This document shows, in pieces, positions 9,216-36,894 of a stretch of 64,000 nucleotides of DNA. The position numbers were made by a program, and so were the translations under genes. Below the pieces are notes generated by a model. The model was not told the DNA's origin and ran no database searches. It saw nothing but the letters and a program-made list of their open reading frames with translations. Every line of letters begins with the position of its first letter. Position 1 is the first letter of the stretch. Source of the stretch: an uncultured Gammaproteobacteria bacterium (GTDB lineage: Bacteria > Patescibacteriota > Microgenomatia > JAMCZE01); NCBI GenBank assembly GCA_964576435.1, contig CAZNUP010000001.1:378259-442258 (forward strand), read 5' to 3'.

Positions 9216-9225
9216 AATAGGCGAA

Positions 9226-9801: not shown

Positions 9802-9805
9802 AACC

Positions 9806-9991
9806 ATGTCCAAAATTATCCAATCAGGAAATAGTCTTGCAGTAACGATCCCAAAAAAATTTGCCAAACAGTTGGGAGTTAAAAAAGGTGACAACATTAG
9901 ATTAAAAAAGTTACCTCACAAAGGTGAGCTAATAATTAGTTTTGATGGTCCAAAACAATTAATTTTGTCAGAAAACAAAGATGAAAAGTAG
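9806..9991 (+). CDS. AbrB/MazE/SpoVT-type swapped-hairpin DNA-binding protein (antitoxin-like)
   Basis: 'IQSGNSLAVTIPKKFAKQLGVKKGDNIRLKK' is the AbrB/MazE SpoVT_AbrB fold signature. 61 aa. Overlaps the secD start. Confidence 0.55.
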   Translation: MSKIIQSGNSLAVTIPKKFAKQLGVKKGDNIRLKKLPHKGELIISFDGPKQLILSENKDEK

Positions 9992-21129: not shown

Positions 21130-21483
21130 ATGGCAGACGAAACAACTCTTCCAGAACCAAAATCCGATACATCAGACATTTTGCGAAAAGTCGTGGCAGC
21201 AATTGTGGGTTTGATTGTAATTATTCTCATTGTTCTTGCTGCTAAATGGATTGGTGACAGGATTAGAGAAAGGTTTTTCCCAGGAACAATTACACCTACA
21301 CCAACTCCAGTTGTAACCATAACTCCAATCCCAACTGGCTATATTAGTCCAATGCCAACTAGAGTTCCAAGTTACTCACACATTCCAGCAACAGGAACTG
21401 AAGACTATATATATGTTCTCGTAGGACTCATGGCAATCGGAGGAACTTCCGCTCTAGTTCTTGCAAAAAAGAAAGCTCTATAG
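21130..21483 (+). CDS. Small Pro/Thr-rich surface protein with canonical C-terminal cell-wall-sorting-like signal (IPATG + hydrophobic + KKK)
   Basis: N-terminal TM/signal-anchor. PT linker 'TITPTPTPVVTITPIPTG'. C-terminus 'HIPATGTEDYIYVLVGLMAIGGTSALVLAKKKAL' is an LPXTG-like pentapeptide, then ~17 hydrophobic residues, then a basic tail. Confidence 0.55.
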   Translation: MADETTLPEPKSDTSDILRKVVAAIVGLIVIILIVLAAKWIGDRIRERFFPGTITPTPTPVVTITPIPTGYISPMPTRVPSYSHIPATGTEDYIYVLVGLMAIGGTSALVLAKKKAL

Positions 21484-21498
21484 TATCTTCCTTGACGT

Positions 21499-21909
21499 AT
21501 GTTTCTTGCCGAAAGTACTGTCAACACAAATGTAACAAGTAATGTTAATTCCTCACAAACTTCAACGGGTGGTTCTTCCTCTCATACATCTATAACAACT
21601 ACAACAAATGGTGAAACAACACATATTGAAAGTAACGAACAAGGCTCAATTCATGTTGAAACAATAAATGGTGAAACTACTGTTAAAACTAGTCCAGGTA
21701 TGAAAGTGGAAGTTAAAAAAGGTGAAGCAAAAGTTGAAGACAATCTTAAACCCACTCCAAAAGCCAGCAGTTCTCCAGAAGTTAAAGGTGTCGCAACTAT
21801 AAATACTGAAGATGTTAAATCAGAGACAAAAGAGGTAAAACAAAATATTTTAGAACAGATTAAAGAAATGTTTGAAAACTTCTTTAAAAAGCTGCAGTTT
21901 CCTAGTTGA
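21499..21909 (+). CDS. Ser/Thr-rich hypothetical protein (no signal peptide detected)
   Basis: ORF with low-complexity S/T/N composition like its neighbours. Start uncertain. Confidence 0.3.
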   Translation: MFLAESTVNTNVTSNVNSSQTSTGGSSSHTSITTTTNGETTHIESNEQGSIHVETINGETTVKTSPGMKVEVKKGEAKVEDNLKPTPKASSSPEVKGVATINTEDVKSETKEVKQNILEQIKEMFENFFKKLQFPS

Positions 21910-21964
21910 CACATTTAGAATTGGCTTGTATCATTGCGTTTAACTTCTGCCCAAAAGTTTTTTT

Positions 21965-22687
21965 ATGAAAACTCGAAGGGCAACCACTATTACTTTAGAA
22001 ATTCCCCAAAATCCAATTCCTGAAATTCTTTCAATGGTTCAAGACTTTGCTTCTGACACTCAAAGTAAAGGCTCAAACATTATTTCAAATATAAAATCAA
22101 AACTTTCTTCCGGAAGAAACGGAAATAAATTTAAAAACTACCTCCCTATTGTTATTGTTGCCATAGTTGCTCTTGGAGCAATTTTCTTCGTCGGCAAATT
22201 TATAACTTCAGCAATTGCGAACTCACACGCTAATTCAGTAGATAATAGAGTTGAGTTGAAAGGTCCAAGAGCAAAAATGACCGTTAATAAAACTTTTGAA
22301 TTCCCTCTTAAAGATGATAAAGGAAAGACAATCGCCACTCTCAAATTCTTATTAGGTGACGCTGAACTTCGAGACGAAATAATTCTCCAAGGACAAAAAG
22401 CAGTTGCTGTAAAAGGTAGAACTTATTTAATAACCACAATTAAATTAACAAATAGTTCTGACAAATTTATTCAAATGAAAGTCAGAAACTATGTAAGACT
22501 TAATGTCAACGGTAATAAAGATGAATGGTTGGCTGCTGAAATTCATAACGATCCAGTTGAAGTGCAACCAGAATCCACAAAACAAACTCGTCTTGGATTT
22601 CCAATTAACGACACAGATAAAGATTTAATCCTAAGAGTTGGTGATCTTGAAGGCAAGAAAGAATCCATTCCCCTAAACTTTAACTAA
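21965..22687 (+). CDS. Membrane-anchored hypothetical protein with extracytoplasmic beta-rich (DUF4352-like) domain
   Basis: Cytoplasmic N-terminus, TM 'LPIVIVAIVALGAIFFVGKFI', then a ~150-aa domain 'LKGPRAKMTVNKTFEF...YLITTIKLTN'. Confidence 0.5.
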   Translation: MKTRRATTITLEIPQNPIPEILSMVQDFASDTQSKGSNIISNIKSKLSSGRNGNKFKNYLPIVIVAIVALGAIFFVGKFITSAIANSHANSVDNRVELKGPRAKMTVNKTFEFPLKDDKGKTIATLKFLLGDAELRDEIILQGQKAVAVKGRTYLITTIKLTNSSDKFIQMKVRNYVRLNVNGNKDEWLAAEIHNDPVEVQPESTKQTRLGFPINDTDKDLILRVGDLEGKKESIPLNFN

Positions 22688-22691
22688 GTTT

Positions 22692-22877
22692 ATGCAAGGA
22701 CAATCTAAAAAACCATCATTAAACGACGAAATACAAGCCGCTCTCCAAAATATCCGTTTCGGTAGTGTTGAAATCTACATTCAAGATGGAGTTGTCACCC
22801 AAGTAACTGCAAGAAATATTAAGAAGACAAAATTTGAAATTTCTAAAGATTTAAAACCGGCCAAGAGTAAAAGTTAG
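22692..22877 (+). CDS. DUF2292/YezD-like small protein
   Basis: 'IRFGSVEIYIQDGVVTQVTARNIKKTKF' matches the YezD (DUF2292) core 'YGSV.I.IQDGKVVQIE'. Confidence 0.5.
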   Translation: MQGQSKKPSLNDEIQAALQNIRFGSVEIYIQDGVVTQVTARNIKKTKFEISKDLKPAKSKS

Positions 22878-22970
22878 AGGATAGATTTGACATATTGACA
22901 AAGCTATTTTCAAATTGTAAAACTGTTTACAAGTAAATATAGTATAAATATTTAGGACGTCTACCGCAAA

Positions 22971-23040
22971 CGGAGACTTCTTTATCTGAAATTCATAGAA
23001 AATCTATTGAAGATTCAGGTCAGGAAGCCTCCGTTTTTTT
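22971..23040 (+). promoter_or_regulatory. Long leader hairpin plus U7 (intrinsic-terminator-like) upstream of the repeat-protein gene; attenuator or upstream-operon terminator
   Basis: CGGAGACTTC...(43-nt loop with internal pairing)...GAAGCCTCCG followed by TTTTTTT. Candidate promoter TTGACA-17-TAAAAC lies upstream at about 22900-22934. A CCCGATCGGG palindrome sits at 23064-23073. Confidence 0.4.
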
Positions 23041-23128
23041 ATTTTATTTGTCGCGAAGATCAACCCGATCGGGAGTGACAAATAAAAGGACGGAAAGGAA
23101 AAAAATTGAAAGGGGGTGAATCGATAAA

Positions 23129-24358
23129 ATGACAAACTTTAAAAAACAATTAGTAGGTGCTCTCGCAACCGGCCTCTTGGTCGCCAATATTTTGGCCCCA
23201 GTCGCCTATGCAGAAGATGGAATCCATCTTGAAGTGAGTGGAAATGGAGCAAAATCCGATTCCACAATCAACGCAGCTGTTTCAAACACTACTGCCGTTA
23301 CCCAAAGTAACGTAGCTAATGTCACAAACAATGTTGATTCAACATCCAATAGCGGAGGAAACAAGGCTAGTGGAAACACTTCTGGAGACGTTTTAATCAA
23401 GACTGGTAAAGCTACATCTAATGTAGAAGTCGCCAATAACTTGAACACAAACGTAGCCAATGTTGATTGCTGCGGAGCCACTTCCACTAACGTTACTATT
23501 TCTGGAAATGGAAAGAAATCAGATAATGATGTAAACCTTTCACAGACCAATGCTAACGTTGTTGCACAAACAAATGAAGCAAACGTCTTAAACAACGTTG
23601 ATTCAAAAGCAAACAGTGGAAAAAACAAAGCTAATGCAAACACTGGAGGCGATGTCACAGTTGTGACAGGAGCAGCCACTGCAGGAGCCGATGTTTCCAC
23701 ACATGCTAATACTAATGTTGCAAACATTGGTGGAGGACATATGGGAGATGAAGGAGAAGTTTCCTTGATCATCTCAGGAAATGGAGAGAAGTCAGACAAT
23801 GATATTGCCTTGGCACTCTCTAACGCTAATTCACTCATTCAAGCAAACGAAGCTAACGTCACTAATGACGTTGATGCAAAAGCTAATTCAGGATACAACA
23901 AAGCCAACGCTAATACCGGAGGCGAAGTTGCAATCTTAACTGGAAAAGCAGACGCAATGGTCGGAGTTGACAATGATGTTAACTTTAACTGGGCAGACGT
24001 TGATTGCGGATGTGTTACCGATTTGAAAGCTAAAGTAGCTGGAAATGGCAAAGAATCTGACAATGATATCAATGCCTCACTCGTTAATACTAAGTTAGCT
24101 GAACAAGTGAATGCAGCAGCTCTACAAAATAATGTAGACGCAAAAGCCAAATCTGGTTGGAATAAAGCAAACGATAACACCGGATCAGTTGAAGGAAGTG
24201 ATCCAGCTATCTTAACTGGGGATTCGTCCTCAAACACAGAAGTTGGAAATTCCAGTAACTGGAACGTGTTTGGAAATGGAGAACTTACTCCTTTGCCAGA
24301 ATTCGACTTTGATTTTGACTGGAGTACATTCATGTTCTGGATGGTTCAACATTCATAA
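23129..24358 (+). CDS. Secreted tandem-repeat surface protein (novel 'SGNG...NSGxNKxNxNTGG' repeat family, ~89-aa period, Cys-pair junction motifs)
   Basis: Strong SD (AAGGGGGTG). Signal peptide 'LLVANILAPVAYA'. Four repeats start at aa 37, 125, 216 and 305, each with '[IV]SGNGxKSD.....N.VD..ANSG.NKANANTGG[DE]V.[IV].TG'. Cys motifs 'VDCCGATS' and 'VDCGCVTD' sit at repeat junctions. Confidence 0.75.
   Translation: MTNFKKQLVGALATGLLVANILAPVAYAEDGIHLEVSGNGAKSDSTINAAVSNTTAVTQSNVANVTNNVDSTSNSGGNKASGNTSGDVLIKTGKATSNVEVANNLNTNVANVDCCGATSTNVTISGNGKKSDNDVNLSQTNANVVAQTNEANVLNNVDSKANSGKNKANANTGGDVTVVTGAATAGADVSTHANTNVANIGGGHMGDEGEVSLIISGNGEKSDNDIALALSNANSLIQANEANVTNDVDAKANSGYNKANANTGGEVAILTGKADAMVGVDNDVNFNWADVDCGCVTDLKAKVAGNGKESDNDINASLVNTKLAEQVNAAALQNNVDAKAKSGWNKANDNTGSVEGSDPAILTGDSSSNTEVGNSSNWNVFGNGELTPLPEFDFDFDWSTFMFWMVQHS
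23225..24280 (+). repeat. Four ~267-nt coding tandem repeats inside the 23129-24358 gene
   Basis: Periodicity of the SGNG/NTGG motif blocks in the translated protein. The nucleotide level is diverged (not identical copies). Confidence 0.6.
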
Positions 24359-24372
24359 CTGAAATCTCAAAC

Positions 24373-24418
24373 TTCGTAAGGGTCTTTGCTTGAGCACTTC
24401 AGGCAAAGCCCCTACGAA
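24373..24418 (+). terminator. Strong stem-loop (16-17 bp near-perfect inverted repeat) downstream of repeat-protein gene; candidate terminator without U-tract
   Basis: TTCGTAAGGGTCTTTGC - 13-nt loop - GCAAAGCCCCTACGAA. Starts 15 nt after the stop codon at 24358. Confidence 0.4.
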
Positions 24419-24447
24419 ATAGAGAAAAATAAAATTAAAACTAGATA

Positions 24448-26679
24448 ATGAAAAATCTTAAAAATAAAATTACAAAATCGCTAAGCATACTATTAATTGT
24501 GATTCTCTTTTTGGGTCACATGTCTCCCCTTGCTGTTTTAGCAGAAGAAGGAACACCAACGCCAGAGCCCACTCAACAAGTTCAACAAGAAGCAACACCA
24601 ACTCCTCAACCTGAAGCAACTCAAATACCAGCACCTGTTGCAACACCAGTTGCACCAACCACGCCAACAGCACCAGTAACTCCTGTAGCACCAACTAACC
24701 CAAATCCAGTTGTTGTAGCACCAGTAACTCCAGTGGCTCCAGTAGCGCCAAGTAATTCAAATAATAATTCAAATAACGAAGAATCTAAAAATAAAGAGGC
24801 CAATAAAGAGAAGAAAAGATCAGAAAATAAATCCAACAACAATAGTGGTGGAAACGTTGGTGATACAACTGTAAATACTGGTAGCACAAATACTAACGGA
24901 GCAATCGTAACAGATGCTAATTCAAATCTTGCTGGCACAAACGGAGGATCAACAAATGGAGTAAGTATCGTAAATGCAAATAATGGCCAGGCTTCAGACA
25001 ATAGTGGTTCAGCGTCAGTTGTTAACAACGACAATACCAATCAAAACAACAATGCCAACGTTTCAAACGGACTTAGTCTAAGTTCTGATTCCGGAAGTAA
25101 CAAAAGTAATGGCAATGTTGGTGATACAACTATTAAAACTGGAGATTCAAATGTTTCAGGAACAATAATCACAGCAGTGAACACAAATGTTGACGGCGTC
25201 ATGGTCTCAGAATTTAATATCGCTGATGATCACGTTGGAGACATCGTCTTAGACTTTGGTGCAAATTGTGTCTCTGGTTGTGGTAACAGCAACGTATCAG
25301 CAAACAACACAGGTAATGGAGCAAATTCAAATAATACGGCCAATTCTGATTTAACAAACAACACAAACACTTTCCAAAATAATGACGCCAATGTTGGTAA
25401 TGACCTTGTCTTGTCAGCAAATAGTGGGAACAACAAGGCTAACGCAAATACTGGTGGAGATAGTTCCATTCAAACTGGCGACGCGAATGTTTCAGGAAAC
25501 GTTCTGACAATGGCTAACAACAATTTTGCAGGGAATGTCGTTTACGGGGTAGTCAACATTTATGGAGATCTTCATGGAGATATCGTTTTCCCAGAAGAAC
25601 AAATGACAGGTTGTTGTGGAACTGGAAGTCTCGCTGCAAACAATATTGGCAATGGATCCAATTCAACAAATTCTGCTAATGGAAGTGCAACCAACAATAA
25701 CAACACGACACAAAACAATAACGCCAATATTACAAACACACTTGATCTAGATGCAGTTACTGGAGACAATAAATTGAATGCAAATACTGGTGGTAATTCC
25801 GAAGTCACAACAGGCAACACCAATGTTCAAGCCAATGTCTTGAATGTCGCCAACAATAATCTTGATGGCGGTAATATGTGGCTTGTCTTAATTAACGACG
25901 CAGGTAAATGGATTGGTAAATTAGTTGGAGCCGATGGAAATATGGCTGCTTCTGGTGGAACAGTTCTAACAGTTGACGAAAATGGTCAGATAACTGCTTC
26001 CAATAACGGAAATGGTAGCGGTTCAACAAATTCAACAGATGGTAGTGTCACAAACAACAACAATACGACTCAAAACAATAATGCCAACATAAATAACAAT
26101 GTTAACCTCTCAGCAAATACAGGTGGCAATTCAACAAGTTATAACACTGGGGGAGATAATGCAATTCAAACTGGAGATGCCAATATCATTGTTAACATGG
26201 TTAACTTTGTAAACAATAATATTACTGGCAATGGAAAATTGTTTGTCACAGTCGTTAACGTATTTGGTAGTTGGACTGGTGATTTCTTAACACCAGGACA
26301 AAAGAAAGAATCAAAGCCAGCTGCTCAAACTGTAGCTAACTCACAAAGTTCACAGTCAACAAATAATAGTAATCAAACACAGCAAGAACAAAGTTCGGTA
26401 CTTGGTTGGACACAGACTAATACACAAACAACACAAACTGTAAAAACAACTCAAACAAATCCTGCTGGCGGAGTACTCTCTTTCTTTGCTGGAGCACAAA
26501 ATAAAACTAACACTTTGAAAGAATCTGTTGGAGTTAAAGATGCAAAAATCACTAAATCTTCTAAATCAAAAGTAAAAATAAACTTGGCATGGTTGATTTT
26601 GGCTTTGCCATTTGCTATACTCTTCCTGTTAAGGAAAAGAGTGGCTCAAGTAGTCACCAAAATGACCGCTCTTCTCTAA
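24448..26679 (+). CDS. Large secreted N/S/T-rich repeat protein of the same 'NKxNxNTGG' family, Pro/Thr-rich N-terminal linker, C-terminal TM + basic tail
   Basis: Signal peptide 'ILLIVILFLGHMSPLAVLA'. 'PTPEPTQQ...TPVAPTTPTAPVTPVAPT' linker. At least 5 repeats 'SxNKxN.NTGGDSSIQTGDANVSGNVLTMANNNFAGN'. Cys motifs 'GANCVSGCG' and 'MTGCCGTG'. C-terminus 'INLAWLILALPFAILFLLRKRVA'. Confidence 0.75.
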   Translation: MKNLKNKITKSLSILLIVILFLGHMSPLAVLAEEGTPTPEPTQQVQQEATPTPQPEATQIPAPVATPVAPTTPTAPVTPVAPTNPNPVVVAPVTPVAPVAPSNSNNNSNNEESKNKEANKEKKRSENKSNNNSGGNVGDTTVNTGSTNTNGAIVTDANSNLAGTNGGSTNGVSIVNANNGQASDNSGSASVVNNDNTNQNNNANVSNGLSLSSDSGSNKSNGNVGDTTIKTGDSNVSGTIITAVNTNVDGVMVSEFNIADDHVGDIVLDFGANCVSGCGNSNVSANNTGNGANSNNTANSDLTNNTNTFQNNDANVGNDLVLSANSGNNKANANTGGDSSIQTGDANVSGNVLTMANNNFAGNVVYGVVNIYGDLHGDIVFPEEQMTGCCGTGSLAANNIGNGSNSTNSANGSATNNNNTTQNNNANITNTLDLDAVTGDNKLNANTGGNSEVTTGNTNVQANVLNVANNNLDGGNMWLVLINDAGKWIGKLVGADGNMAASGGTVLTVDENGQITASNNGNGSGSTNSTDGSVTNNNNTTQNNNANINNNVNLSANTGGNSTSYNTGGDNAIQTGDANIIVNMVNFVNNNITGNGKLFVTVVNVFGSWTGDFLTPGQKKESKPAAQTVANSQSSQSTNNSNQTQQEQSSVLGWTQTNTQTTQTVKTTQTNPAGGVLSFFAGAQNKTNTLKESVGVKDAKITKSSKSKVKINLAWLILALPFAILFLLRKRVAQVVTKMTALL

Positions 26680-26703
26680 CACTCCTGCCCCCAATTTATT
26701 TTA

Positions 26704-27273
26704 GTGCAAAAAACTCTTTTTACAATTTTTGCGTTCCTCTTAGTGTTAGCTCTTGTCAAAACCCAAGTACAAGCAATCGACTACAGTGTTGAAAATAATG
26801 GTGCCAACTCCCAAAACAACGTAAATGTTCAAAACACCAACAATAACTCCAATAGCCAAAGTAATACCACAAATATCACTAACAATGTAAATGCTAATGC
26901 AAATACAGGTGGCAACAGTGCTTCAGGTAATTCTGGAGACAGTACTATTATTACTGGCGATTCAACAGTTAGTATTTCCATAACTAATAATGGAAACGGC
27001 AACAATACTCAAACTGGTTGCTGTAAAACTCCTACGCCAACAAAAACACCAACTAAGGTTCCAACTCCAGATCCAACAGGCACTCCAAACTCAGGAGGAA
27101 GTAATGGAGGATCGTCTGGTGGAAGTAGTTCTGGTGGTAGTTCAGGAAGTTCTTCAAGTCCACAAGTCCTGGGCCTTTCTAAGACCGCAGGCACTCAAAA
27201 AGTTGACGTCGCATTCTATTTAGCTGGAATCTTATGCCTAGGTCTCGCCGGAAAAAGACTTCTAAAAAGTTAA
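26704..27273 (+). CDS. Small secreted repeat-family protein with PT linker and C-terminal 'LGLSKTAG'-TM-basic sorting-signal-like tail
   Basis: Signal peptide 'AFLLVLALVKTQVQA'. One 'ANANTGGNSASGNSGDSTIITGDSTV' repeat. 'TGCCKTPTPTKTPTKVPTPDPTGTP' linker. C-terminus 'VLGLSKTAGTQKVDVAFYLAGILCLGLAGKRLLKS'. Confidence 0.6.
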   Translation: MQKTLFTIFAFLLVLALVKTQVQAIDYSVENNGANSQNNVNVQNTNNNSNSQSNTTNITNNVNANANTGGNSASGNSGDSTIITGDSTVSISITNNGNGNNTQTGCCKTPTPTKTPTKVPTPDPTGTPNSGGSNGGSSGGSSSGGSSGSSSSPQVLGLSKTAGTQKVDVAFYLAGILCLGLAGKRLLKS

Positions 27274-27803
27274 CCCTCAAGGACTATCTGCCCATTCTCT
27301 TAATAGTAATTGGCCTAGTTCTATTAATGGTTCCCCTAGCAACGAAAAACATTGCTTCTGCTCAATCTAACCCTATAAAGATAAAATCAGAACTTCTTTC
27401 CAAAAAAGACACTAGGGAAGTCCCAATCAGGATTTTAGTCCCTAAATATAAAGTTGATCTTCCCATAATTGAAGCAAAAGTAGTAAATGGGTTGTGGGAA
27501 CTTTCAGAAACAACCGCCTCCCATGGTGTTGGATCGGCTAATCCCGGTGACAAAGGTAATATCGTTGTTTTTGCTCATGCAAGGGACGATCTATTTGGTC
27601 CAATTAGATATATTCAAAAAGATGACGAGATTTATCTTCTAACTAAAGATAAATGGCACAAATACAAAGTTGAGGAAACAAAGCTTGTTGACCCGAGTGA
27701 AGTGAAAGTAATTGCTCCCACCAAAAAAGAAACCCTGACTTTGTACACTTGTTCAGGATTTCTTGATTCCAAGAGGCTTATTGTTGTTGCAAAGCCATCT
27801 TAA
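27234..27803 (+). CDS. Sortase family transpeptidase (N-terminal signal-anchor; catalytic His/Cys/Arg present)
   Basis: Basic N-terminus plus TM. 'NIVVFAHARDD' (His), 'LTLYTCSG' (TLxTC Cys), 'RLIVVA' (Arg). Overlaps the upstream gene by 40 nt. Confidence 0.8.
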   Translation: MPRSRRKKTSKKLTLKDYLPILLIVIGLVLLMVPLATKNIASAQSNPIKIKSELLSKKDTREVPIRILVPKYKVDLPIIEAKVVNGLWELSETTASHGVGSANPGDKGNIVVFAHARDDLFGPIRYIQKDDEIYLLTKDKWHKYKVEETKLVDPSEVKVIAPTKKETLTLYTCSGFLDSKRLIVVAKPS

Positions 27804-27851: not shown

Positions 27852-28457
27852 TTAGAGCACTGTATTGCCCTCTCCAGTTACTGTAGTTTCAACACTAGAA
27901 TCAGCTGGGCCAGTTACGACTCCATTTGTTCCATTGGTGTTGTCTTTCACAGTGTTTCCGCCGGTATTAGCGACTGAGGAAACTGCTGTAACAGCAACGG
28001 TGTTACTCTTTTGTTTCACGACGTTTGTAGTGCCGGAAACGACTGTCACTGTGTTAACGGATTTTTTACCGTTTCCGGTAATGCTAACGTCAGTAGAATC
28101 GCCACATCCACAAGATGGAGCAACTGCTTCATTGGATCCACCCATAACAGTAGTTGTAACTGTTGATGTGGAAGCGCCAGTTGTAACTCCATTTGTTCCA
28201 CCAGTGTTTCCATTAACTTTGTTGTTTCCACTGTTAGCTACAGAAGAGACGAATGTTAATGCCATGGTGTTACTTGTTTGCTTGGTGATATTTTTATTTG
28301 CAGAGATAGCAGTCACTGTGTTAACGGATTGTTTTCCATTTCCACTAATGTTAACTGTGTTTGCTGCAAATGCTGCGGATGCTGTGGTAGCGACCAAAAG
28401 GCCAATTGCCAAAGCTCCTGTTGTTCCTTTCAAAATTAGTTTGTTCATATTATTCAC
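27852..28457 (-). CDS. Secreted repeat-family protein (two ~85-aa SGNG/NTGG repeats separated by 'PSCGCGDSTD' Cys motif)
   Basis: Signal peptide 'ALAIGLLVATTASAAFA'. Repeats 'ISGNGKQSVNTVT...ANSGNNKVNGNTGGTNGVTTG' and 'ITGNGKKSVNTVT...ANTGGNTVKDNTNGTNGVVTG'. The + strand ORF over the same DNA translates to P/V/T nonsense. Confidence 0.65.
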   Translation of the reverse strand: MNNMNKLILKGTTGALAIGLLVATTASAAFAANTVNISGNGKQSVNTVTAISANKNITKQTSNTMALTFVSSVANSGNNKVNGNTGGTNGVTTGASTSTVTTTVMGGSNEAVAPSCGCGDSTDVSITGNGKKSVNTVTVVSGTTNVVKQKSNTVAVTAVSSVANTGGNTVKDNTNGTNGVVTGPADSSVETTVTGEGNTVL

Positions 28458-28466
28458 CCCCTTTCA

Positions 28467-29504
28467 TCAAAGTTCACATTTAATTCGAGTTTCTGCTTCA
28501 CATGTGTCTTTTCCATTTCCTCCGTTAGCTTTGTCAGTTCCTGTTTCCCCAAATAACTTGTCATCACCGTTTCCGCCGTCAATGATGTCGTTTCCCCCGC
28601 CGGCATGAACTTCATCCCTGTCATTACCAACGTCAATTGTGTCAACTCCTGATCCTGAAACTATTAGATCATTTCCATTTCCACCAATAATGTTGTTGTT
28701 CCCGTCCCCTGCAGAGATATTGTCATCCTCATTTCCCCCATCGATTGTGTCGTTGCCACTTTCTGCCGTGATAACATCTTTCCCATTTCCCCCATCAAGT
28801 TTGTTATTTCCCATTCCCCCAACGATACAGTCATCATTATTTCCTCCATCAATTGTGTCGTTTCCTTCAAGACCAATTATCAAGTCTTTTTTATTTGTTC
28901 CATTAAGTTTGTCATTACCTGAGGTGCCCATTATTGTTGAAGTGTATTGGCTGATATCCCCACAAGCTGCGGGTAGAGAAAACGCGACACCGATTTGTAA
29001 ATCAAAAACTATTTTTGTGTTTTGAAATTCATTTCCAGCATTTGGATCAAAATCTAATTTAAATGTATATTGTTTAGTGGCTCCTGAATTTAAATTGCCT
29101 AAGGCCATTCCGTCTGGTCCATTGCTTTCACTAAAAAATTGACTAAGTGTTTTCGGGCCATAAACCGTAGTAGCTCCTTGTGTGATTGTTATTTCTAAAA
29201 CTCCAGACAAACTAGCTGTTTCGGAAGTTAAAAGACCCCGAACTGCGATGGGTTTAAGGTCTGGTGATGAATTTGTGACATTAACATTCCTATTTTCCGA
29301 TTGTCCCGGTGCAGCATTAGCTATATTAAATAGTGGTGTTCCAGGTGGAACTCCCCAGTCAACTGTTAGGTCCCCAACAGCGTAAGCGGTAGGGGATTTG
29401 AAAATATTCATAACTCCCCCACTAGCCCAAACTAATATTGCTATTACTCCTAAAACAATTCCAATTCTGATAAATCTTTTTGTCATATATTTAGCATGAA
29501 CCAT
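28467..29504 (-). CDS. TasA/camelysin-like N-terminal domain fused to RTX-type (GGxGxD) calcium-binding beta-roll repeats; SipW-cognate-like signal peptide
   Basis: Signal region 'WASGGVMNIFKSPTAYAVGDLTV' (compare TasA 'GGGTWAAFNDIKSKDATFASGTLDL'). 'NIANAAPGQSE...NVTN' and '...FDLQIGVAF' are TasA-like. The C-terminal half carries at least 10 nonapeptide-like repeats 'GGNGNDLIVSG', 'GGNGDDKLFG', 'GGMGNNKLDGGNGKD'. Confidence 0.7.
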   Translation of the reverse strand: MVHAKYMTKRFIRIGIVLGVIAILVWASGGVMNIFKSPTAYAVGDLTVDWGVPPGTPLFNIANAAPGQSENRNVNVTNSSPDLKPIAVRGLLTSETASLSGVLEITITQGATTVYGPKTLSQFFSESNGPDGMALGNLNSGATKQYTFKLDFDPNAGNEFQNTKIVFDLQIGVAFSLPAACGDISQYTSTIMGTSGNDKLNGTNKKDLIIGLEGNDTIDGGNNDDCIVGGMGNNKLDGGNGKDVITAESGNDTIDGGNEDDNISAGDGNNNIIGGNGNDLIVSGSGVDTIDVGNDRDEVHAGGGNDIIDGGNGDDKLFGETGTDKANGGNGKDTCEAETRIKCEL

Positions 29505-30126
29505 TATTTGTTAACCCTTTTGTTGACGTGTTGCAGTTTTTGAATGAACCGGTACCATCGATATTTCGACCTATTGAAACATTTGCACTGCTTGAGGCGT
29601 AAGTTTGCGCGCTGACTGTAGCTCCTAAATTATTTTCTAAATTTAATCCATCTCCGGCATTGTTAAGCCAACCCGCGCTATGGTTAAAAGCAAGTATTTG
29701 ACCTGGTGTAATTGTCCCAGTTAGCGCTAAGTCATCAGCTCTAGTGTTATTTGCGTCAAAAATCCCCCAGCCTGTCAAATTTATTGAGGTGTTACCAATG
29801 TTAATTATTTCTACCCATTCATCTCCAATGCTCGGTTGAGTCATAAACTCATTAATTTGCAGATTAGTGATTGGTGCGGGAGTTGGGATTGGGGATATTG
29901 TCGGCGTGGGGGTCAATGACGGTGTTGCAGTTGGAGTAGTGGCTTCAATTGGTGTTACAGTTGGTGTAATTTCTTGTGGTGGAGTTTGCGGAAAAAGGCT
30001 AGCTGCAGTAAACAAATTTCCGCTATTAGAATTAGTGCTGGAAAATAATGCATATGTGACACGATAAGATATTAATGTCAAAAACACTAAAATCATTCCT
30101 ATTAATAAAAAGTGTTGTTGTTTCAT
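29491..30126 (-). CDS. Lamin-tail-domain (LTD) protein with SipW-cognate-class signal peptide and PT-rich linker
   Basis: 'YALFSSTNSNSGNLFTAASL' matches the SipW-cognate signal pattern (AxFxD/S...N.FTAG.L). 'TPTVTPIEATTPTATPSLTPTPTISPIPTPAPIT' linker. 'INEFMTQPSIGDEWVEIINIGNTSINLTGWGIFD' is LTD-like (PF00932). Confidence 0.7.
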   Translation of the reverse strand: MKQQHFLLIGMILVFLTLISYRVTYALFSSTNSNSGNLFTAASLFPQTPPQEITPTVTPIEATTPTATPSLTPTPTISPIPTPAPITNLQINEFMTQPSIGDEWVEIINIGNTSINLTGWGIFDANNTRADDLALTGTITPGQILAFNHSAGWLNNAGDGLNLENNLGATVSAQTYASSSANVSIGRNIDGTGSFKNCNTSTKGLTNNGSC

Positions 30127-30671
30127 GGTGTAGCTGCAATCTCATTTCTAACTTTTTTCTCAATTTGGACTTCCATCTCCTTTTTAATATTCCAAATTTC
30201 AAAGCCCATGAAAATAAAAGCTGGAATGGCGATCGCAATAATAAATCCTGTTGGAGTTTTTAAATTTTGAGACAAATTTCCAATATAAGGTATAGTCGCA
30301 ATCCACTTACCCTTTATGGAACTGCTATTCACTGGATCCAAGTCAGCTGCATTATTAGCGTCTCCTTTTGTTTTAAAACTCACGATATCGTTTGTCATAA
30401 TGGTCTGGTTAATTCTGTGAGCGATTGTCCTTTTGTTTATGTCTTCAAAAACAACTAAGTCGTTTAATTCATAGTTTTTTTGAGGGCTAGTAAAAATTAC
30501 AGACCCAACAGGTACAGAAGGCTCCATGCTTCCCGAGGCTATTGCAAAGCTCCGAATGCCACCTAGCACATTAGAATTTGAAGTGATAACGGTTGCCCCG
30601 ACCAAAATAAGGATCAAAGCCAATGTTGATTTAAGAAAGATTCCTAAGCCAGTTAGTATTTTTTTGTTCAT
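30123..30671 (-). CDS. sipW: SipW-type (ER/archaeal-type) signal peptidase I with C-terminal TM
   Basis: N-terminal TM. 'SGSMEPSVPVGSVIF' (the catalytic-Ser SGSMxP box of S26B/SipW-type peptidases). Second TM near the C-terminus 'FIIAIAIPAFIFMGF'. ATGA overlap with the downstream LTD gene. Confidence 0.8.
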   Translation of the reverse strand: MNKKILTGLGIFLKSTLALILILVGATVITSNSNVLGGIRSFAIASGSMEPSVPVGSVIFTSPQKNYELNDLVVFEDINKRTIAHRINQTIMTNDIVSFKTKGDANNAADLDPVNSSSIKGKWIATIPYIGNLSQNLKTPTGFIIAIAIPAFIFMGFEIWNIKKEMEVQIEKKVRNEIAATP

Positions 30672-30706
30672 CTAATTTCAAATATATAATCGTATGTTCC
30701 CGGGTG

Positions 30707-30723
30707 GCGGGGCCATCCCCGCC
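30707..30723 (-). other. Intercistronic GC hairpin between tasA-like and sipW (no U-tract): possible partial terminator or processing site
   Basis: GGCGGGG-CCAU-CCCCGCC 7-bp G/C stem, plus an adjacent CCCGGG palindrome, inside the 58-nt gap. Confidence 0.35.
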
Positions 30724-30729
30724 AAAGTT

Positions 30730-31281
30730 TTACTGTGACGCGGTGAAAGCCATATTGAATGCTACACTTTGTCCTTGAAACGAATCGTCAGTTGTTGGAT
30801 CAAAAGTTAGTTGAGCTGCTAAGTTGTATGAACCTCCTGCGGGTAATGTTGCTCCTGAAAGAACAAAATTAGCCCAAGTTGGGTCGTCCAATGCTCCACT
30901 GCCTAGTGATGTGTCGCCTGCGTCAAAAACGCCATTGTCATTTGCGTCTTTAAAGAGCATTAGATTGAGTTTTGCTGCCAATCCAGGGTTTGCACCCCCA
31001 ATGGCAATCGAACCCACCTTAACAAAATTTGCATCAACAGTTCCTGTATTTTGCAAAGTCAGTTTTTGGGAAAAGACATCGCCAGGTGCTGCTGATGGAA
31101 TGGTAAATACGCCAGTTGATGGGGAGACCTGAGTGTTTATTCTCAAGACCATATTACCGGCTCCAAAAGTATTTCCAGTGTTGGTATTAGTTGAACTAAA
31201 TGCTGCAAAAGCACTACCTCCAAGCATGGCTAAGCAAGCCACGATTGAAACTGCACTAATTGCTATTTTTCGATTTAACAT
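30730..31281 (-). CDS. TasA/camelysin-family protein with SipW-cognate-class signal peptide
   Basis: Strong SD GGAGGTGAG. 'MLGGSAFAAFSSTNTNTGNTFGAGNMVL' signal (TIGR04088-like). 'IPSAAPGDVFSQKLTLQNTGTVDA' (compare TasA NLKPGDKLTKDFQFENNG). C-terminal '...VAFNMAFTASQ'. Confidence 0.75.
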   Translation of the reverse strand: MLNRKIAISAVSIVACLAMLGGSAFAAFSSTNTNTGNTFGAGNMVLRINTQVSPSTGVFTIPSAAPGDVFSQKLTLQNTGTVDANFVKVGSIAIGGANPGLAAKLNLMLFKDANDNGVFDAGDTSLGSGALDDPTWANFVLSGATLPAGGSYNLAAQLTFDPTTDDSFQGQSVAFNMAFTASQ

Positions 31282-31305
31282 AAATTTTTCTCACCTCCTT
31301 CACAC

Positions 31306-31342
31306 AAAAAACCAGCTATCTGGGCAGATAAAGCTGGTTTTT
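31306..31342 (-). promoter_or_regulatory. Long near-perfect hairpin with A5/U5 flanks in the 5' leader of the tasA-like operon (candidate attenuator/operator)
   Basis: AAAAACCAGCTATCTG-GGC-CAGATAAAGCTGGTTTTT. Lies between a candidate minus-strand promoter (TTGCCA-17-TAATAA, about 31352-31380) and the SD. The 'TGGGCAGA' core recurs at about 31391. Confidence 0.4.
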
Positions 31343-31576: not shown

Positions 31577-32512
31577 ATGAAACCTCACGAACATCTTCTT
31601 CACATCTTTACTCCAAGGCATACTAATAACCACAGAGCCAAGATTCTTCATTTTTCTGGATTAACTTTCTGCATAGCACTTTTGCTAGTTTTTCAATTAG
31701 CTTTAACCTTTGTTCACGCAGTTGATCCCGAGGTTTTAGGATATGCATCTAATATCAATGTCTCAGATCTTTTAAGTCAAACAAATTCGAGACGCGCACA
31801 AGCAGGTGTTGGTGCACTAGCTTTAAATGATCAATTAACAAACGCCGCTTCAGGTAAAGGTGCTGATATGTTTCAAAACCAATATTGGGCGCATGTATCC
31901 CCATCTGGAAAAGAACCATGGGCTTTCATAACTGGAGCTGGTTATAACTACGTTTTCGCTGGTGAAAATTTAGCAAGAGATTTCGGGGATTCTAAAGGTG
32001 TTGTTGATGCTTGGATGAATTCACCTTCACATAAAGAAAATCTTTTGAACGAAAGGTTTAAAGATGTCGGTTTTGCCATTGTTAATGGTAAATATGGAGA
32101 TTCTGAAACAACGCTTGTAGTACAAATGTTTGGTTCAAAGGCGAGTGATGCTCCATCAATTTCTGAAGTAGCAGCTGTTAATACTCCAATCCCATCAGAA
32201 ACTCCAACATTAACACCGACCACAACCATAACCCCTGTCGCTCCAGTAAATCCTGCCAACGGACAACCTCCAACGGGGGTAGTTCTTAGGACAGAGACTC
32301 AGATTACCAATCCAAAATTTGATATCTTATCTCTCTCAAAAACTCTAGCCTTTGGAATAACAATGTTACTTCTAGCAGCATTAGTTATTGACGCAGTTCT
32401 AATCTACAAAAGAAAAACTGTCCGTATTTCTGGTCACAACATTGCTCACATGTTGATTTTAATTACAGTGCTAGTTGCAGTAACCTTAATTGGAAGGGGG
32501 ATAATTATTTAA
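31577..32512 (+). CDS. CAP/SCP (YkwD-like) domain secreted protein with PT linker and C-terminal 'LSLSKTLA'-TM-basic tail plus second TM
   Basis: N-terminal TM/signal. 'QYWAHVSPSG...WMNSPSHKENLLNERFKDVGFAIV' is a CAP/PR-1 signature. 'IPSETPTLTPTTTITPVAPVNP' linker. C-terminus 'ILSLSKTLAFGITMLLLAALVIDAVLIYKRKT'. Confidence 0.7.
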   Translation: MKPHEHLLHIFTPRHTNNHRAKILHFSGLTFCIALLLVFQLALTFVHAVDPEVLGYASNINVSDLLSQTNSRRAQAGVGALALNDQLTNAASGKGADMFQNQYWAHVSPSGKEPWAFITGAGYNYVFAGENLARDFGDSKGVVDAWMNSPSHKENLLNERFKDVGFAIVNGKYGDSETTLVVQMFGSKASDAPSISEVAAVNTPIPSETPTLTPTTTITPVAPVNPANGQPPTGVVLRTETQITNPKFDILSLSKTLAFGITMLLLAALVIDAVLIYKRKTVRISGHNIAHMLILITVLVAVTLIGRGIII

Positions 32513-33439: not shown

Positions 33440-34195
33440 ATGACCAAGCCCAAAATAGTGATTGCCATGCCCACCTATAATGAGGCGGAAAGCATTGGGA
33501 AAATGCTGGATGTGCTAACTAAAGATATTTTTCCAAAAATCAAAGACCATGATGTCCAGGTTTTAGTAATTGATGGGCACTCTCCTGATGGAACCTGGAA
33601 AATAGTTGCCGAAAAAGCCAAAAAGAATAAATCAGTAGTTCTCCTAGATGAAGGTAAAAAAAGCGGCCTAGGTGCTGCTTATACTAATGGTTTTAACTAC
33701 GCCATAAAAACTCTTAAAGCTGATGCAATTATGGAAATGGATTCCGATTTCCAACATGATCCACAAGACATCCCAAGATTCATTGCAGAATTTGATAAAG
33801 GCCATGACTATATCTTGGGATCAAGGTATATCAAAGGTGGTTCAATTCCAAAAGAATGGGGATTAGATCGTAAATTCTTATCAGTTGTTGGTAACCTTGT
33901 TTATCAATTTGGTCTTTTGATGTTTGATATCCATGATTTTACAACTGGTTATCGCCTAGCAAGGGTAAAGGATTATTTAGATTCAATAAACTTTGAAAAA
34001 GTTTTTTCTAAATCTTTTGCCTATAAAACTCGTCTGCTTTATGAAATGAAAAAGAGAGGTGCCAAGATTGAAGAAATCCCAATTAAGTTTGGAGTAAGAG
34101 GTGCGGGAGATAGTAAGATGACTACAAATACATTAACTGAAAGCGTCAAAATTATCGCAGTGATTTGGGCAGATCGTCTAGGATTGTCAAAATGA
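33440..34195 (+). CDS. GT2 polyprenyl-phosphate sugar synthase (Dpm1/GtrB/ArnC-like), soluble form
   Basis: 'IVIAMPTYNEAESI', 'VIDGHSPDGT', 'MDSDFQHDP' DXD-type GT-A motifs of dolichol-phosphate mannose synthase-like enzymes. Confidence 0.85.
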   Translation: MTKPKIVIAMPTYNEAESIGKMLDVLTKDIFPKIKDHDVQVLVIDGHSPDGTWKIVAEKAKKNKSVVLLDEGKKSGLGAAYTNGFNYAIKTLKADAIMEMDSDFQHDPQDIPRFIAEFDKGHDYILGSRYIKGGSIPKEWGLDRKFLSVVGNLVYQFGLLMFDIHDFTTGYRLARVKDYLDSINFEKVFSKSFAYKTRLLYEMKKRGAKIEEIPIKFGVRGAGDSKMTTNTLTESVKIIAVIWADRLGLSK

Positions 34196-34938
34196 AAAAA
34201 CTTGTCATAGTTGCCCCTACTTTCAATGAAGAAGAAAACATCGAGGACTTCATCACAAACACCCTAGCTCAGCAAATAAGACTAAACAATGTGGATTTGG
34301 AACTTCTTATTTCAGATAGTATTTCCAATGACAAAACAAAAGAGATTGTTCAAAAAATGCAAAAAAAAGAAAAGAAACTCCACTTTTTAGAGTCTAAAAC
34401 TCCAGGTCCTGGAAAGTTGGGTGCCGGTCTAATTGAGGGTCTAGATTATGCGACTTCAAATCTTAAAGCAGATTACCTGATCACTATGGAGGCAGATTTA
34501 ACAAATGACGTCAATAAAATTCCTGAGATTGCAGATCTACTAAGTAAGTTTGAAGTGGTAATCTGTAGCAGATATATAAATGGTGGCCGTGTTGTTAATT
34601 GGTCGCTGTGGAGGAAGTTTTTAAGCTACTTTGCAAACTTAATTTTGCGAACTCTTTCCGGAGGCTCTAAATTGCATGAATTTACCAACCTTTACAGGGG
34701 CTTCCATAAAGATGTCTGGCAAAAGCTCCGTCCGGAGTTAATAGCTCAAACTGATTGGCTTTTTGTTCCGGCATTCGTTTTTGCAGTAATTCAGGGCAAG
34801 TTCAAAACGGTTGAGATTCCCTATACGTTTTATGATCGTTTTGGTGGCAGATCTAAGATGCAAACTCCCTCATATACAAAAAACTTGCTTATATTTGCGC
34901 TAAAATATAGACTAAACCGTCATGGAGCATTTTCTTAA
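34192..34938 (+). CDS. GT2 polyprenyl-phosphate sugar synthase paralogue (Dpm1-like)
   Basis: Start chosen at the ATG that overlaps the upstream TGA (ATGA). 'LVIVAPTFNEEENI', 'MEADLTND'. Confidence 0.8.
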   Translation: MKKLVIVAPTFNEEENIEDFITNTLAQQIRLNNVDLELLISDSISNDKTKEIVQKMQKKEKKLHFLESKTPGPGKLGAGLIEGLDYATSNLKADYLITMEADLTNDVNKIPEIADLLSKFEVVICSRYINGGRVVNWSLWRKFLSYFANLILRTLSGGSKLHEFTNLYRGFHKDVWQKLRPELIAQTDWLFVPAFVFAVIQGKFKTVEIPYTFYDRFGGRSKMQTPSYTKNLLIFALKYRLNRHGAFS

Positions 34939-35422
34939 ATTCTTAGTAGTAGGTTCAATTGGATTTCTAATTAACACCACGGTGTTAATTTTTGGCGTTC
35001 GCAAGTTCAATCTTAAGCCATCAATTGCTGGTCCAATTGGTGCCGAACTTGCGATTATCTCCAACTTTATTTTGAATAATTTTTGGACCTTTTCAGATAA
35101 AACAATCACTTCCTGGTCAGTTCTCCCCCAAAAATTTATTGCCTTTAATATTCTTTCCCTAGGGTCTGCTGTAATTCAATTCATTTTCTTAAAAGCTGGA
35201 GAAATCATCTTTGGACTAGAAAAGTATAAAAAACCTGTTTTAACAGTTATTCCAGTCAAAAAGATACCAGTAGTTAACAGTATTGTCGAAGCGCTTTTAA
35301 AGATCAAAATATTCAATAAACTCTCTCAAAAAATGACTGTATATTTTGTTTTCTATATTGCTGGTGTTGGTGTTGGTTTAATTGTAAATTTCTTTATCTA
35401 TAGCCTAATAATTTGGAGATGA
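34922..35422 (+). CDS. GtrA-family small membrane protein (polyprenyl-P-sugar translocation component)
   Basis: 'KFLVVGSIGFLINTTVLIF...ISNFILNNFWTF' GtrA (PF04138) pattern, 4 TM. Confidence 0.75.
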   Translation: MEHFLKFLVVGSIGFLINTTVLIFGVRKFNLKPSIAGPIGAELAIISNFILNNFWTFSDKTITSWSVLPQKFIAFNILSLGSAVIQFIFLKAGEIIFGLEKYKKPVLTVIPVKKIPVVNSIVEALLKIKIFNKLSQKMTVYFVFYIAGVGVGLIVNFFIYSLIIWR

Positions 35423-36894
35423 AAAAAAAGTTAGTCCTTTTAACATTCGGGCTAATTATTGTTCTGGGATTCCTACTTCGCTTCTATAGATTAGAAGCTT
35501 ACTTAACTTTTCTCGGTGATCAAGGACGAGATCTTTTAGTGGTTAAAAGAATGATTGTCGATCATATACCAACTCTTTTAGGTCCAACGGCTTCAGTCGG
35601 TGGATTTTATGTAGGCCCAGCTTATTACTATTTTCTGGTGCCATTTATGTTTGTCTTTAGGCTAGATCCCTTTGGTTCTGCCTTTATGTCAGCAACAATT
35701 GGACTGGCAACATTGATTTTGACCTATTTCTTTGTAAAGGAGCTAACAAGTAGTAAGAAGATTTCACTATTGGCAGCATTTTTAACAACAATTGCTCCCA
35801 AGTTTGTAGGAATCTCGCGTTTTTCTTGGAACCCAAATCCAATGCCTCTATTTACAATTCTGACTCTCTATTTAACCCTCCTCGGCGCTAAAAGAAATAA
35901 ACTAATTTATACGCTCTTTGCTGGAGTCTCATTTGGAATCCTTCTCCAACTTCACTATATGTCTTTAGTTCTTGTTCCCGTACTGGCTGTAGCTGCTGTG
36001 CTACTATTTTGGAGAAAAAGATTGCTTCTCAATCTGGGAATGGCTGTGCTTGGTGTTTTAATTGGCCTAAGCCCATTCCTTCTTTACGAACTTCGCCATA
36101 GTTTTCCAAACTTGATTAGTGCTACAGAGTTTTTAACTAGGGGAACTACAGTAGCTCCAAAATCCTATAATCCTTTTGAGCTCTACAACAACACGGGAAG
36201 AATTCTTTTTGATACTCTCATTGGCTTCATGGGTGTAGTGCCTAATTTTTTCTTTTTGACTTCGCTTTTAGGATCAGCAATTTTAATTTTCAAAAAGAAG
36301 CTATCAAGATCCACAGTCATAATAGTTTTAAGTTATTTCCTCTTAGGAATCATAACGATGGGTCTTTATAGAGGACAAATTCTTGACCATTATTATGGCG
36401 TTCTTTTCCCACTAGCCATTTTAATGCTTGCTCTCACCGGCATGTTGCTTATTTCTTATGGCAAAGTAGGTAAAGTTATTGCCATAATCTATTTCGGAGC
36501 TTTCACAGTCTTTTCCTTAAAAAATGAATTTTATGTATTTCCAGCAAACAACTTGGTTCAACAAACTAGAGCAGTTTCTGAAATAGCCCTTGGTCTAACA
36601 AATCATGAACCATTCAATTTTGCATTGATTACTCCAGGAAATAGTGACCACGCCTATAGGTACTTCATGGAGACAAAAGGCATAAAACCTGAAGTTATTC
36701 AAAACGAAATTATTGACCCAAAAAGATTTTCAGTCACCAAGCAACTTATTGTCGTCTGTGAAGATCCAAAGTGTGAGCCTCTTGGTAATCCTCTTTGGGA
36801 AGTTGCTGGTTTTGGTAGAGCTGAGATCAAGGAAACGAGGAACGGTCCAGCTGGGATTAAAGTGTTTAAACTGGTACACTACGAGGGTGAATAA
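35413..36894 (+). CDS. GT-C fold polytopic membrane glycosyltransferase (ArnT/PMT-like)
   Basis: About 12 TM. N-terminal 'LRFYRLEAYLTFLGDQGRDLLVVKRM' loop with acidic residues, as in polyprenyl-P-sugar-dependent GT-C enzymes. Confidence 0.65.
   Translation: MEMKKKLVLLTFGLIIVLGFLLRFYRLEAYLTFLGDQGRDLLVVKRMIVDHIPTLLGPTASVGGFYVGPAYYYFLVPFMFVFRLDPFGSAFMSATIGLATLILTYFFVKELTSSKKISLLAAFLTTIAPKFVGISRFSWNPNPMPLFTILTLYLTLLGAKRNKLIYTLFAGVSFGILLQLHYMSLVLVPVLAVAAVLLFWRKRLLLNLGMAVLGVLIGLSPFLLYELRHSFPNLISATEFLTRGTTVAPKSYNPFELYNNTGRILFDTLIGFMGVVPNFFFLTSLLGSAILIFKKKLSRSTVIIVLSYFLLGIITMGLYRGQILDHYYGVLFPLAILMLALTGMLLISYGKVGKVIAIIYFGAFTVFSLKNEFYVFPANNLVQQTRAVSEIALGLTNHEPFNFALITPGNSDHAYRYFMETKGIKPEVIQNEIIDPKRFSVTKQLIVVCEDPKCEPLGNPLWEVAGFGRAEIKETRNGPAGIKVFKLVHYEGE

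Follow-up and report, generated by a model that had tools for sequence, protein, structure and literature searches.

A minus-strand gene cassette in the 64-kb window (the whole stretch of DNA that was analysed) appears to encode a surface fibre of the TasA superfamily that would assemble by donor-strand exchange without a chaperone and be processed by its own peptidase. Given the sequence relationships and predicted folds described below, a probability of about 0.7 was assigned to this reading, and the interpretation of the locus in a preliminary description of the stretch, as a TasA-type extracellular fibre or adhesin system, was supported. Five tightly packed, co-directional open reading frames (ORFs) were found at 27852 to 31281, all at the positions reported in that description, and the peptide motifs quoted there were present. 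Read along the minus strand, they encode a major subunit of the TasA/CalY family (g1, 30730 to 31281, 183 residues); a SipW-type signal peptidase I of the endoplasmic reticulum (ER)/archaeal class, S26B (g2, 30123 to 30671, 182 residues); a putative TapA-like, donor-only protein with a Lamin Tail Domain (LTD) (g3, 29491 to 30126, 211 residues); a predicted TasA-like acceptor domain fused to an RTX beta-roll (g4, 28467 to 29504, 345 residues); and a secreted repeat protein (g5, 27852 to 28457) of 201 residues, or 198 if read from the ATG at 28448. The g1-g2 and g4-g5 gaps measure 58 and 9 nt, and g2/g3 and g3/g4 overlap by 4 and 14 nt, a spacing that fits a single operon. Contigs encoding identical proteins in unchanged gene order comprised one from NCBI (709,729 bp) and two from Logan. 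The identities previously proposed for g1 to g4 all scored above threshold, that of the g4 N-terminal domain by hhalign.

The product of g1 matched PF12389 in Pfam with 56.1 bits (gathering score, 22.5; E value, 5.9e-15). A signal peptide of 26 residues was predicted, ending in …GGSAFA before AFSSTNTNTGNTFGAGN and followed by a donor-strand segment and a jelly-roll core; this pre-sequence parallels that of TasA, …GGGTWA before AFNDIKSKDATFASGTL. A PDB search with the single g1 sequence gave no match, and TasA and AbpX were reached only by the family profile, which in the hidden Markov model (HMM) alignment covered TasA residues 2 to 205 of 8aur, from the mature N-terminus onward, and also matched AbpX (9sj2/9rhp) at an E value of 3e-5. 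Residues 27 to 46 of g1 were paired with the mature N-terminus of TasA (FNDIKS-KDATFASGTL). As had been anticipated in the preliminary description, the predicted structure of g1 is TasA-like, a jelly-roll beta-sandwich whose closest structural matches were filament subunits throughout, with ∼14% identity in the structural alignment with TasA. Among 58 homologues, A26, F28, N37, F39, G42, and L46 were conserved at ≥90%, and these columns mark the best-conserved N-terminal stretch of the family. The predicted monomer was confident over most of its length, with low confidence exactly at residues 23 to 32, as expected if this strand needs a partner. Mature g1 is acidic (predicted isoelectric point, ∼4) and contains an EF-hand-like loop, D112-A-N-D-N-G-V-F-D-A-G-D123. 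Within the window, the g1 family profile matched g1, g3, and g4 only.

Related loci were collected by scanning species-representative genomes and metagenomes with a 7-sequence g1 alignment. This yielded 19 loci, of which 11 distinct loci of sufficient length, the window included, were used for synteny counts. A g2 and a g3-type gene came after g1 in 11/11, and a g4-type gene was present in 10/11; g3 and g4 are swapped in L017, and g4 is missing from L007. The named relatives are labelled Candidatus Roizmanbacteria or “Patescibacteria group,” and further homologues bear the label Levybacteria. The closest g1 relative in the genome collection, from L003 (CAYOZJ010000004.1), shared 59% identity and lies in the same cassette; its label, “uncultured Gammaproteobacteria bacterium,” is probably a taxonomic misassignment, since all other named relatives belong to the candidate phyla radiation (CPR).

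The g3 product matched the LTD family PF00932 in Pfam with 45.1 bits (cut-off, 34.3). Its signal peptide ends in …RVTYA before LFSSTNSNSGNLFTAAS and is followed by a Pro/Thr linker of ∼50 residues and the LTD, which ends in …NNGSC. Ten of the first 17 residues past the predicted cleavage site are identical to those of g1, with the two Phe residues spaced as in g1. The g1 family profile matched g3 at residues 11 to 55 only (25.8 bits; E value, 9.5e-8 among the window ORFs). Across 10 loci, the donor-motif positions common to g1 and g3 were F2, S4, N8, N11, a hydrophobic residue at position 13, and A15, and a donor motif, a linker, and a variable cargo made up the g3-type protein in 11/11 loci. 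By sequence, g3 bears a copy of the g1 donor segment and lacks a TasA domain. It combines a donor-strand-like N-terminus with an immunoglobulin (Ig)-like domain, the LTD, that is unable to accept a strand, as is characteristic of TapA. Searches of Pfam, NCBIfam, and PDB sequences with g3 gave no TapA-related match, and the protein is best regarded as a probable analogue of TapA rather than a homologue.

For g2, the score was 80.2 bits against TIGR02228 (archaeal/ER-type signal peptidase I, SipW included; cut-off, 51.85) and 16.2 bits, below the cut-off of 47, against the bacterial P-type model TIGR02227. The proposed SipW type therefore held, and a grouping with LepB was not seen. Against the Bacillus SipW equivalog NF046067, g2 reached 95.5 bits, below the cut-off of 190; judged by these scores, it is SipW-like and, by the NCBI criterion, not a SipW orthologue. 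The protein has hydrophobic segments at its N- and C-termini and the boxes SGSMEP (Ser), AHRI (His), and GDANNAAD. The only PDB sequence matches were human SEC11A and SEC11C, with an alignment spanning the Ser, His, and Asp boxes and pairing those of g2 with SGSMEP, VHRV, and GDNNAVD, consistent with Ser-His(-Asp) boxes and no Ser-Lys dyad. These boxes we take to be the catalytic residues, following what is established for SEC11 and SipW. The gene lies directly downstream of g1 in 11/11 loci.

A direct link between this peptidase and g3 was found in other genomes. An exhaustive search with g3 returned, besides short g3-type proteins bearing the same N-terminal motif, seven proteins (one per 50%-identity cluster: P0221, P0232, P0264, P0281, P0289, P0303, and P0308) in which a TIGR02228 peptidase (80 to 93 bits) is fused to a g3-type protein. 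Their architecture runs from the peptidase through a hydrophobic segment, the g3 donor motif, and a Pro/Thr linker to the LTD. Such a Rosetta-stone arrangement connects the peptidase with g3 and is direct genomic evidence of a SipW-type enzyme and a TapA-like protein acting together. Since the enzyme and its presumed substrate are joined in one chain, self-processing is implied.

The C-terminal part of g4 matched RTX PF00353 with 80.3 bits in 6 stretches (cut-off, 23; Pfam). The N-terminal domain had no direct Pfam match, and weak PF12389 matches were seen in the g4 orthologues of L017 and L021; aligned to the g1 family profile with hhalign, it gave a probability of 98.6% (E value, 5e-16), and the HMM matches were reciprocal. 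The protein is divided into a hydrophobic helix (residues 3 to 27), a TasA-like domain (∼40 to 175), and an RTX beta-roll (∼185 to 345) of some 17 short strands. In the AlphaFold2 model, with a predicted local distance difference test score (pLDDT) of 93, the RTX strands recur every 9 residues from 189 to 341 at a pLDDT of ∼98. The top Foldseek matches were the CyaA RTX domain, for the RTX blocks, and the TasA fibre 8aur (E value, 6.9e-4). More than 120 full-length homologues were found, with four Cys residues invariant in the family and a conserved Cys pair (…C.AE….CEL) closing the RTX module. Across 91 homologues, the segment joining the helix to the TasA-like domain, residues 28 to 38, showed no conservation; the profile alignment makes it five residues shorter, with bulky residues at the g1 cleavage position, and conservation begins at T39-AYAVGDL. 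Cleavage of g4 may take place, for instance behind the conserved A-x-A at residue 42, or the protein may stay membrane anchored via its N-terminal helix. The hydrophobic N-terminal helix argues for Sec-dependent export, and genes for type I secretion were not seen among the immediate neighbours of the operon, to which the inspection was confined.

The C-terminal cargo of both g3 and g4 varied among the loci. Most g3-type proteins have an LTD; that of L007 instead has half of a g5-type repeat unit and that of L021 a Cys-rich domain. For g4, the Pfam scan identified RTX in three loci (the window, L006, and L009) and LTD in L003, L004, L005, L017, and L021, and in L014 and L018, outside that scan, the protein ends in the same LTD-like C-terminal sequence. 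Such cargo swapping suggests adaptation to different surfaces or hosts.

In Bacillus subtilis TasA, the donor strand comprises residues 28 to 38, with F29, I32, and F39 filling the groove of the next subunit (PMC9674648). By analogy, g2 would cleave both g1 and g3 after A26, giving the N-termini AFSST… and LFSST…, in which F28 and F39 would be the equivalents of F29 and F39, which fill the groove in TasA. Since g3 has no acceptor domain, it could only donate a strand. The strand of g3 would enter the first g1 subunit, a role shown for TapA, and the freed strand of that g1 would enter the next, so that g3 would nucleate the fibre and stay at one end, displaying its Ig-like LTD on a Pro/Thr stalk, while g1 polymerises head to tail. 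The pI of ∼4 of mature g1 and its EF-hand-like loop suggest that Ca2+ helps g1 to assemble, and with the RTX block of g4 they hint at a Ca2+ dependence like that reported for AbpX. With an acceptor domain and no conserved donor segment, g4 would take the last free strand and terminate the fibre, and it would either stay in the membrane by its N-terminal helix or be released. Its RTX module, folding with Ca2+ (an LTD in most relatives), would then serve as an adhesin or anchor.

Several points weigh against this fibre model. Against the TasA equivalog model NF046066, g1 scored 20.1 bits, below the cut-off of 450. Since g1 and g2 both fall below the Bacillus equivalog cut-offs, they are to be read as family members and not orthologues, and g1 is, on present sequence comparisons, a distant member of the TasA family rather than a TasA orthologue. 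The EF-hand-like loop was present in only 19 to 29 of the 58 g1 family members. No covariation was detected within loci between the g1 strand and its g3 mimic (8.5 versus 8.1 identities; permutation P = 0.16, n = 10). TIGR04088, the model of the SipW-cognate signal (cut-off, 19 bits), was also run on isolated N-termini at E values up to 10; it gave a near miss for g1 (14.8 bits for the whole protein and 18.7 bits for the N-terminal 51 residues) and, even at that threshold, no match for g3 or g4. Because only g1 is scored, and below the cut-off, this generic model is not usable for g3 and g4. Accordingly, of the three SipW-cognate signal peptides that had been proposed, that of g3 is upheld by its match to the g1 profile and the 10/17 identity, that of g1 falls just short by the generic model, and that of g4, with a divergent, unconserved motif, is unconvincing. 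The description of g2 as the dedicated peptidase of the operon was inferred from synteny; a simple motif scan of the 64-kb window found no second signal peptidase. Where g4 sits in the fibre can only be guessed: at its tip, at its base, or interspersed as a minor subunit.

The support for a fibre here comes entirely from sequence and predicted folds, which leaves room for g1, g3, and g4 to act individually as secreted or surface proteins, in a matrix or as adhesins, sharing one peptidase and forming no polymer, with g1 a soluble TasA/CalY-like protein and g3 and g4 independent adhesins. Members of the TasA family can exist as stable monomers when in solution (PMC9674648), and the g1 monomer was modelled confidently without a partner over most of its length. 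However, conservation within the g1 family is highest in the post-cleavage strand, whose purpose in TasA is polymerisation, and g3 retains that strand and nothing else of g1 in all 11 loci, which is hard to explain without strand donation. Together with the filament subunits that were the best structural matches of g1 throughout, this makes a set of independent proteins unlikely. A camelysin-type (MEROPS M73) secreted metalloprotease, with the operon as its maturation module, is suggested by the name of the Pfam family matched by g1, Peptidase_M73, camelysin metallo-endopeptidase. This assignment was rejected because g1 contains no histidine and hence cannot form a classical zinc site; moreover, the conserved columns of the g1 family include no catalytic motif, and those family members whose structures have been characterised (TasA) are jelly-roll fibre subunits with a structural role, so that a protease is scarcely credible. 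The remaining alternative is a sortase-assembled pilus or surface island of the Gram-positive type, in which the sortase encoded at 27234 to 27803 would covalently link or anchor g1, g3, and g4. That gene lies 48 nt from the end of g5, close to tailed repeat proteins and an LPXTG-anchor protein at 21130 to 27273; L005 and L007 likewise have a sortase close to the cassette, and in bacteria a linkage of AbpX loci to sortases and LPXTG anchors is frequent (bioRxiv 10.64898/2026.01.04.697558). Yet neither a sorting motif nor a hydrophobic or basic tail is present at the C-termini of g1 (…FTASQ), g3 (…NNGSC), and g4 (…IKCEL), sortases are missing from the flanks of L003, L004, and L006, and the likely sortase substrates are the repeat proteins rather than the TasA-like proteins. 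Sortase assembly of the cassette products was consequently considered quite improbable, and the donor-strand-exchange fibre was retained as the preferred reading.

The wider TasA superfamily includes AbpA, AbpX, Tafi, threads, and cannulae. Within it, the closest known system is the B. subtilis tapA-sipW-tasA operon (PMC9674648; PMC10151520). Both have a major subunit with a donor strand right after the cleavage site, a neighbouring gene for an ER-type signal peptidase that has two membrane segments, and an accessory protein that combines a donor-strand-mimicking N-terminus with an Ig-like domain unable to accept a strand. They differ in order, with the major subunit first here (g1-g2-g3-g4), in the length of g1, which is ∼50 residues shorter than TasA, and in the accessory protein, which here is an LTD on a Pro/Thr stalk with no detectable homology to TapA. 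The host is also different, a CPR bacterium with a genome of ∼0.7 Mb. The preliminary description had placed both the LTD protein and the TasA::RTX fusion outside the Bacillus scheme. This was borne out for g4, since a TasA-like domain fused to RTX or LTD in a fourth gene has no Bacillus counterpart, whereas the LTD protein g3 would be no oddity but, by analogy, the functional counterpart of TapA.

According to a 2026 preprint, TasA-superfamily loci bring together a major subunit with a signal peptidase I and with minor and tip subunits, to which sortase or LPXTG anchors are added in bacteria (bioRxiv 10.64898/2026.01.04.697558). The AbpX, AbpA, Tafi, and thread loci of archaea, Bacillota, and Chloroflexota share the same locus logic as that found here, with variable distal domains and frequent sortase linkage (PMC9245690; bioRxiv 10.64898/2026.01.04.697558). 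An involvement of Ca2+ is common to AbpX and to the present proposal; however, the AbpX peptidases are reported to have ten transmembrane helices and a DUF5305 partner (bioRxiv 10.64898/2026.01.04.697558), whereas g2 has 182 residues and two hydrophobic segments, and the scanned neighbours included no DUF5305 protein. Unlike chaperone-usher type 1 and P pili, the system has no periplasmic chaperone, usher, or outer membrane and no sequence homology to them, although the proposed terminator logic of g4 recalls FimH in type 1 pili. With the RTX adhesins and toxins of type I secretion, g4 shares tandem GGxGxD nonapeptides and a predicted Ca2+-binding beta-roll, but it differs in its N-terminal hydrophobic signal or anchor and in carrying the RTX as C-terminal cargo of a TasA-like domain.

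The degree of novelty implied in the preliminary description was too high. Homologues of PF12389 had already been recorded in Patescibacteria, one of the phyla listed by Wang et al. 2022 (PMC9245690), and some g1 relatives are labelled “CalY family protein” by NCBI. The family and the general locus logic being known from Bacillus and archaea, the present locus extends an existing picture and opens no new one. The two surveys that cover the superfamily are RefSeq based, and CPR loci, RTX fusions, and peptidase::substrate fusions are not described in them (PMC9245690; bioRxiv 10.64898/2026.01.04.697558). In the collection of papers searched, none connected SipW with the CPR. Apparently new are the cassette of four genes conserved among these CPR lineages, a TapA analogue that bears an LTD, the TasA::RTX/LTD fusions, and the peptidase::substrate fusions.

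The genomes of CPR/Patescibacteria are minimal, and an attached life on other cells is presumed for these bacteria; the attachment itself has largely been credited to type IV pili. A genome of ∼0.7 Mb that spends some 3.4 kb on a TasA-type fibre cassette, conserved across several Roizmanbacteria-like species, points to a second, chaperone-free attachment route. A broader proposal, possible but doubtful as a whole, is that Microgenomates-type CPR bacteria build a self-assembling, Ca2+-dependent donor-strand fibre as a second attachment organelle of these episymbiotic, ultra-small cells besides type IV pili, its two ends set by modular proteins, a donor-only cap (g3) and an acceptor-only terminator (g4). 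Their interchangeable cargo (LTD, RTX, repeats, or Cys-rich domains) would set the adhesion target, such as a host cell, extracellular DNA, or a mineral, and in some lineages peptidase fusions would let the nucleator release itself. The cassette would also represent a compact natural design of starter, polymer, and terminator with exchangeable end domains, and its genes are small enough for heterologous reconstitution.

Possible regulatory elements were found at the start of the operon and in the g1-g2 spacer. A terminator-like hairpin on the minus strand at 31306 to 31342 (AAAACCAGCT…AGCTGGTTTT plus a T-run) sits in a 295-nt divergent intergenic region, upstream of g1 and with no co-directional gene before it. 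The Shine-Dalgarno sequence of g1 (AAGGAGGTG, 31292 to 31300, minus strand) follows a few nucleotides downstream. Comparable hairpins were present upstream of g1 in L003, L007, and L021, and the element may be a regulatory leader or attenuator. An Rfam search of the g1 leader found no credible family; its sole match, Phe_leader, was rejected as chance (21 bits against a cut-off of 55; E value, 0.29), and tRNA and Rfam scans of the whole window likewise gave no credible match. A promoter scan found fewer sigma-70-like sites than in shuffled sequences, and none on the minus strand, the sigma-70 model being uninformative for this lineage; the G+C content of the window is 35 to 41%. The g1-g2 spacer contains a GC-rich hairpin on the minus strand (30705 to 30724; 8 bp, 7 of them G-C) with no T-tract on the coding strand, which may act as an mRNA-stabilising or partial-termination element raising expression of the major subunit.

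The fifth gene of the proposed operon of five is probably co-transcribed with the others, but the conserved cassette consists of g1 to g4. A g5-type gene was found behind the cassette only in L007, and g5 lies outside the conserved core and belongs to the paralogous repeat family of the adjacent sortase cluster. Its product has two units of ∼88 residues behind an ordinary signal peptide (AFA/A) and is paralogous to the repeat proteins at 23129 to 27273. Neither g5 nor its paralogues had a match in Pfam, NCBIfam, or PDB, and a weak match to gamma-haemolysin (E value, 0.13) was rejected as compositional.

The fibre operon lies within a surface-protein island of ∼11 kb. The plus-strand part at 21130 to 27803 encodes an LPXTG-anchor protein (21130 to 21483; PF00746), the large Asn/Gly/Thr-rich g5 paralogues of no known family (23129 to 24358, 24448 to 26679, and 26704 to 27273), the sortase (PF04203, 88 bits), and additionally two unknown proteins. 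Among these neighbours, hydrophobic and basic C-terminal tails were found only in the products of 21130 to 21483, 24448 to 26679, and 26704 to 27273. In L007, a Patescibacteria metagenome-assembled genome, the g3-type protein (9159 to 9464, plus strand) carries its half repeat unit in place of the LTD and is followed by a g5-like gene (9499 to 10098, plus strand) and then, matching the layout of the window, by a sortase gene and genes for repeat proteins. This arrangement is the sole hint of a functional tie between the repeat family and the fibre.

On the other side of the operon, the divergent plus-strand gene at 31577 to 32512 encodes a further surface protein, a secreted member of the CAP/YkwD family (PF00188, 65.8 bits) in which a Pro/Thr linker is combined with a membrane segment at the C-terminus. 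A few kilobases from the operon, the plus-strand region at 33440 to 36894 encodes two family-2 glycosyltransferases and a PMT-type protein mannosyltransferase; it is a speculation that these enzymes glycosylate the Pro/Thr-rich linkers of the surface proteins.

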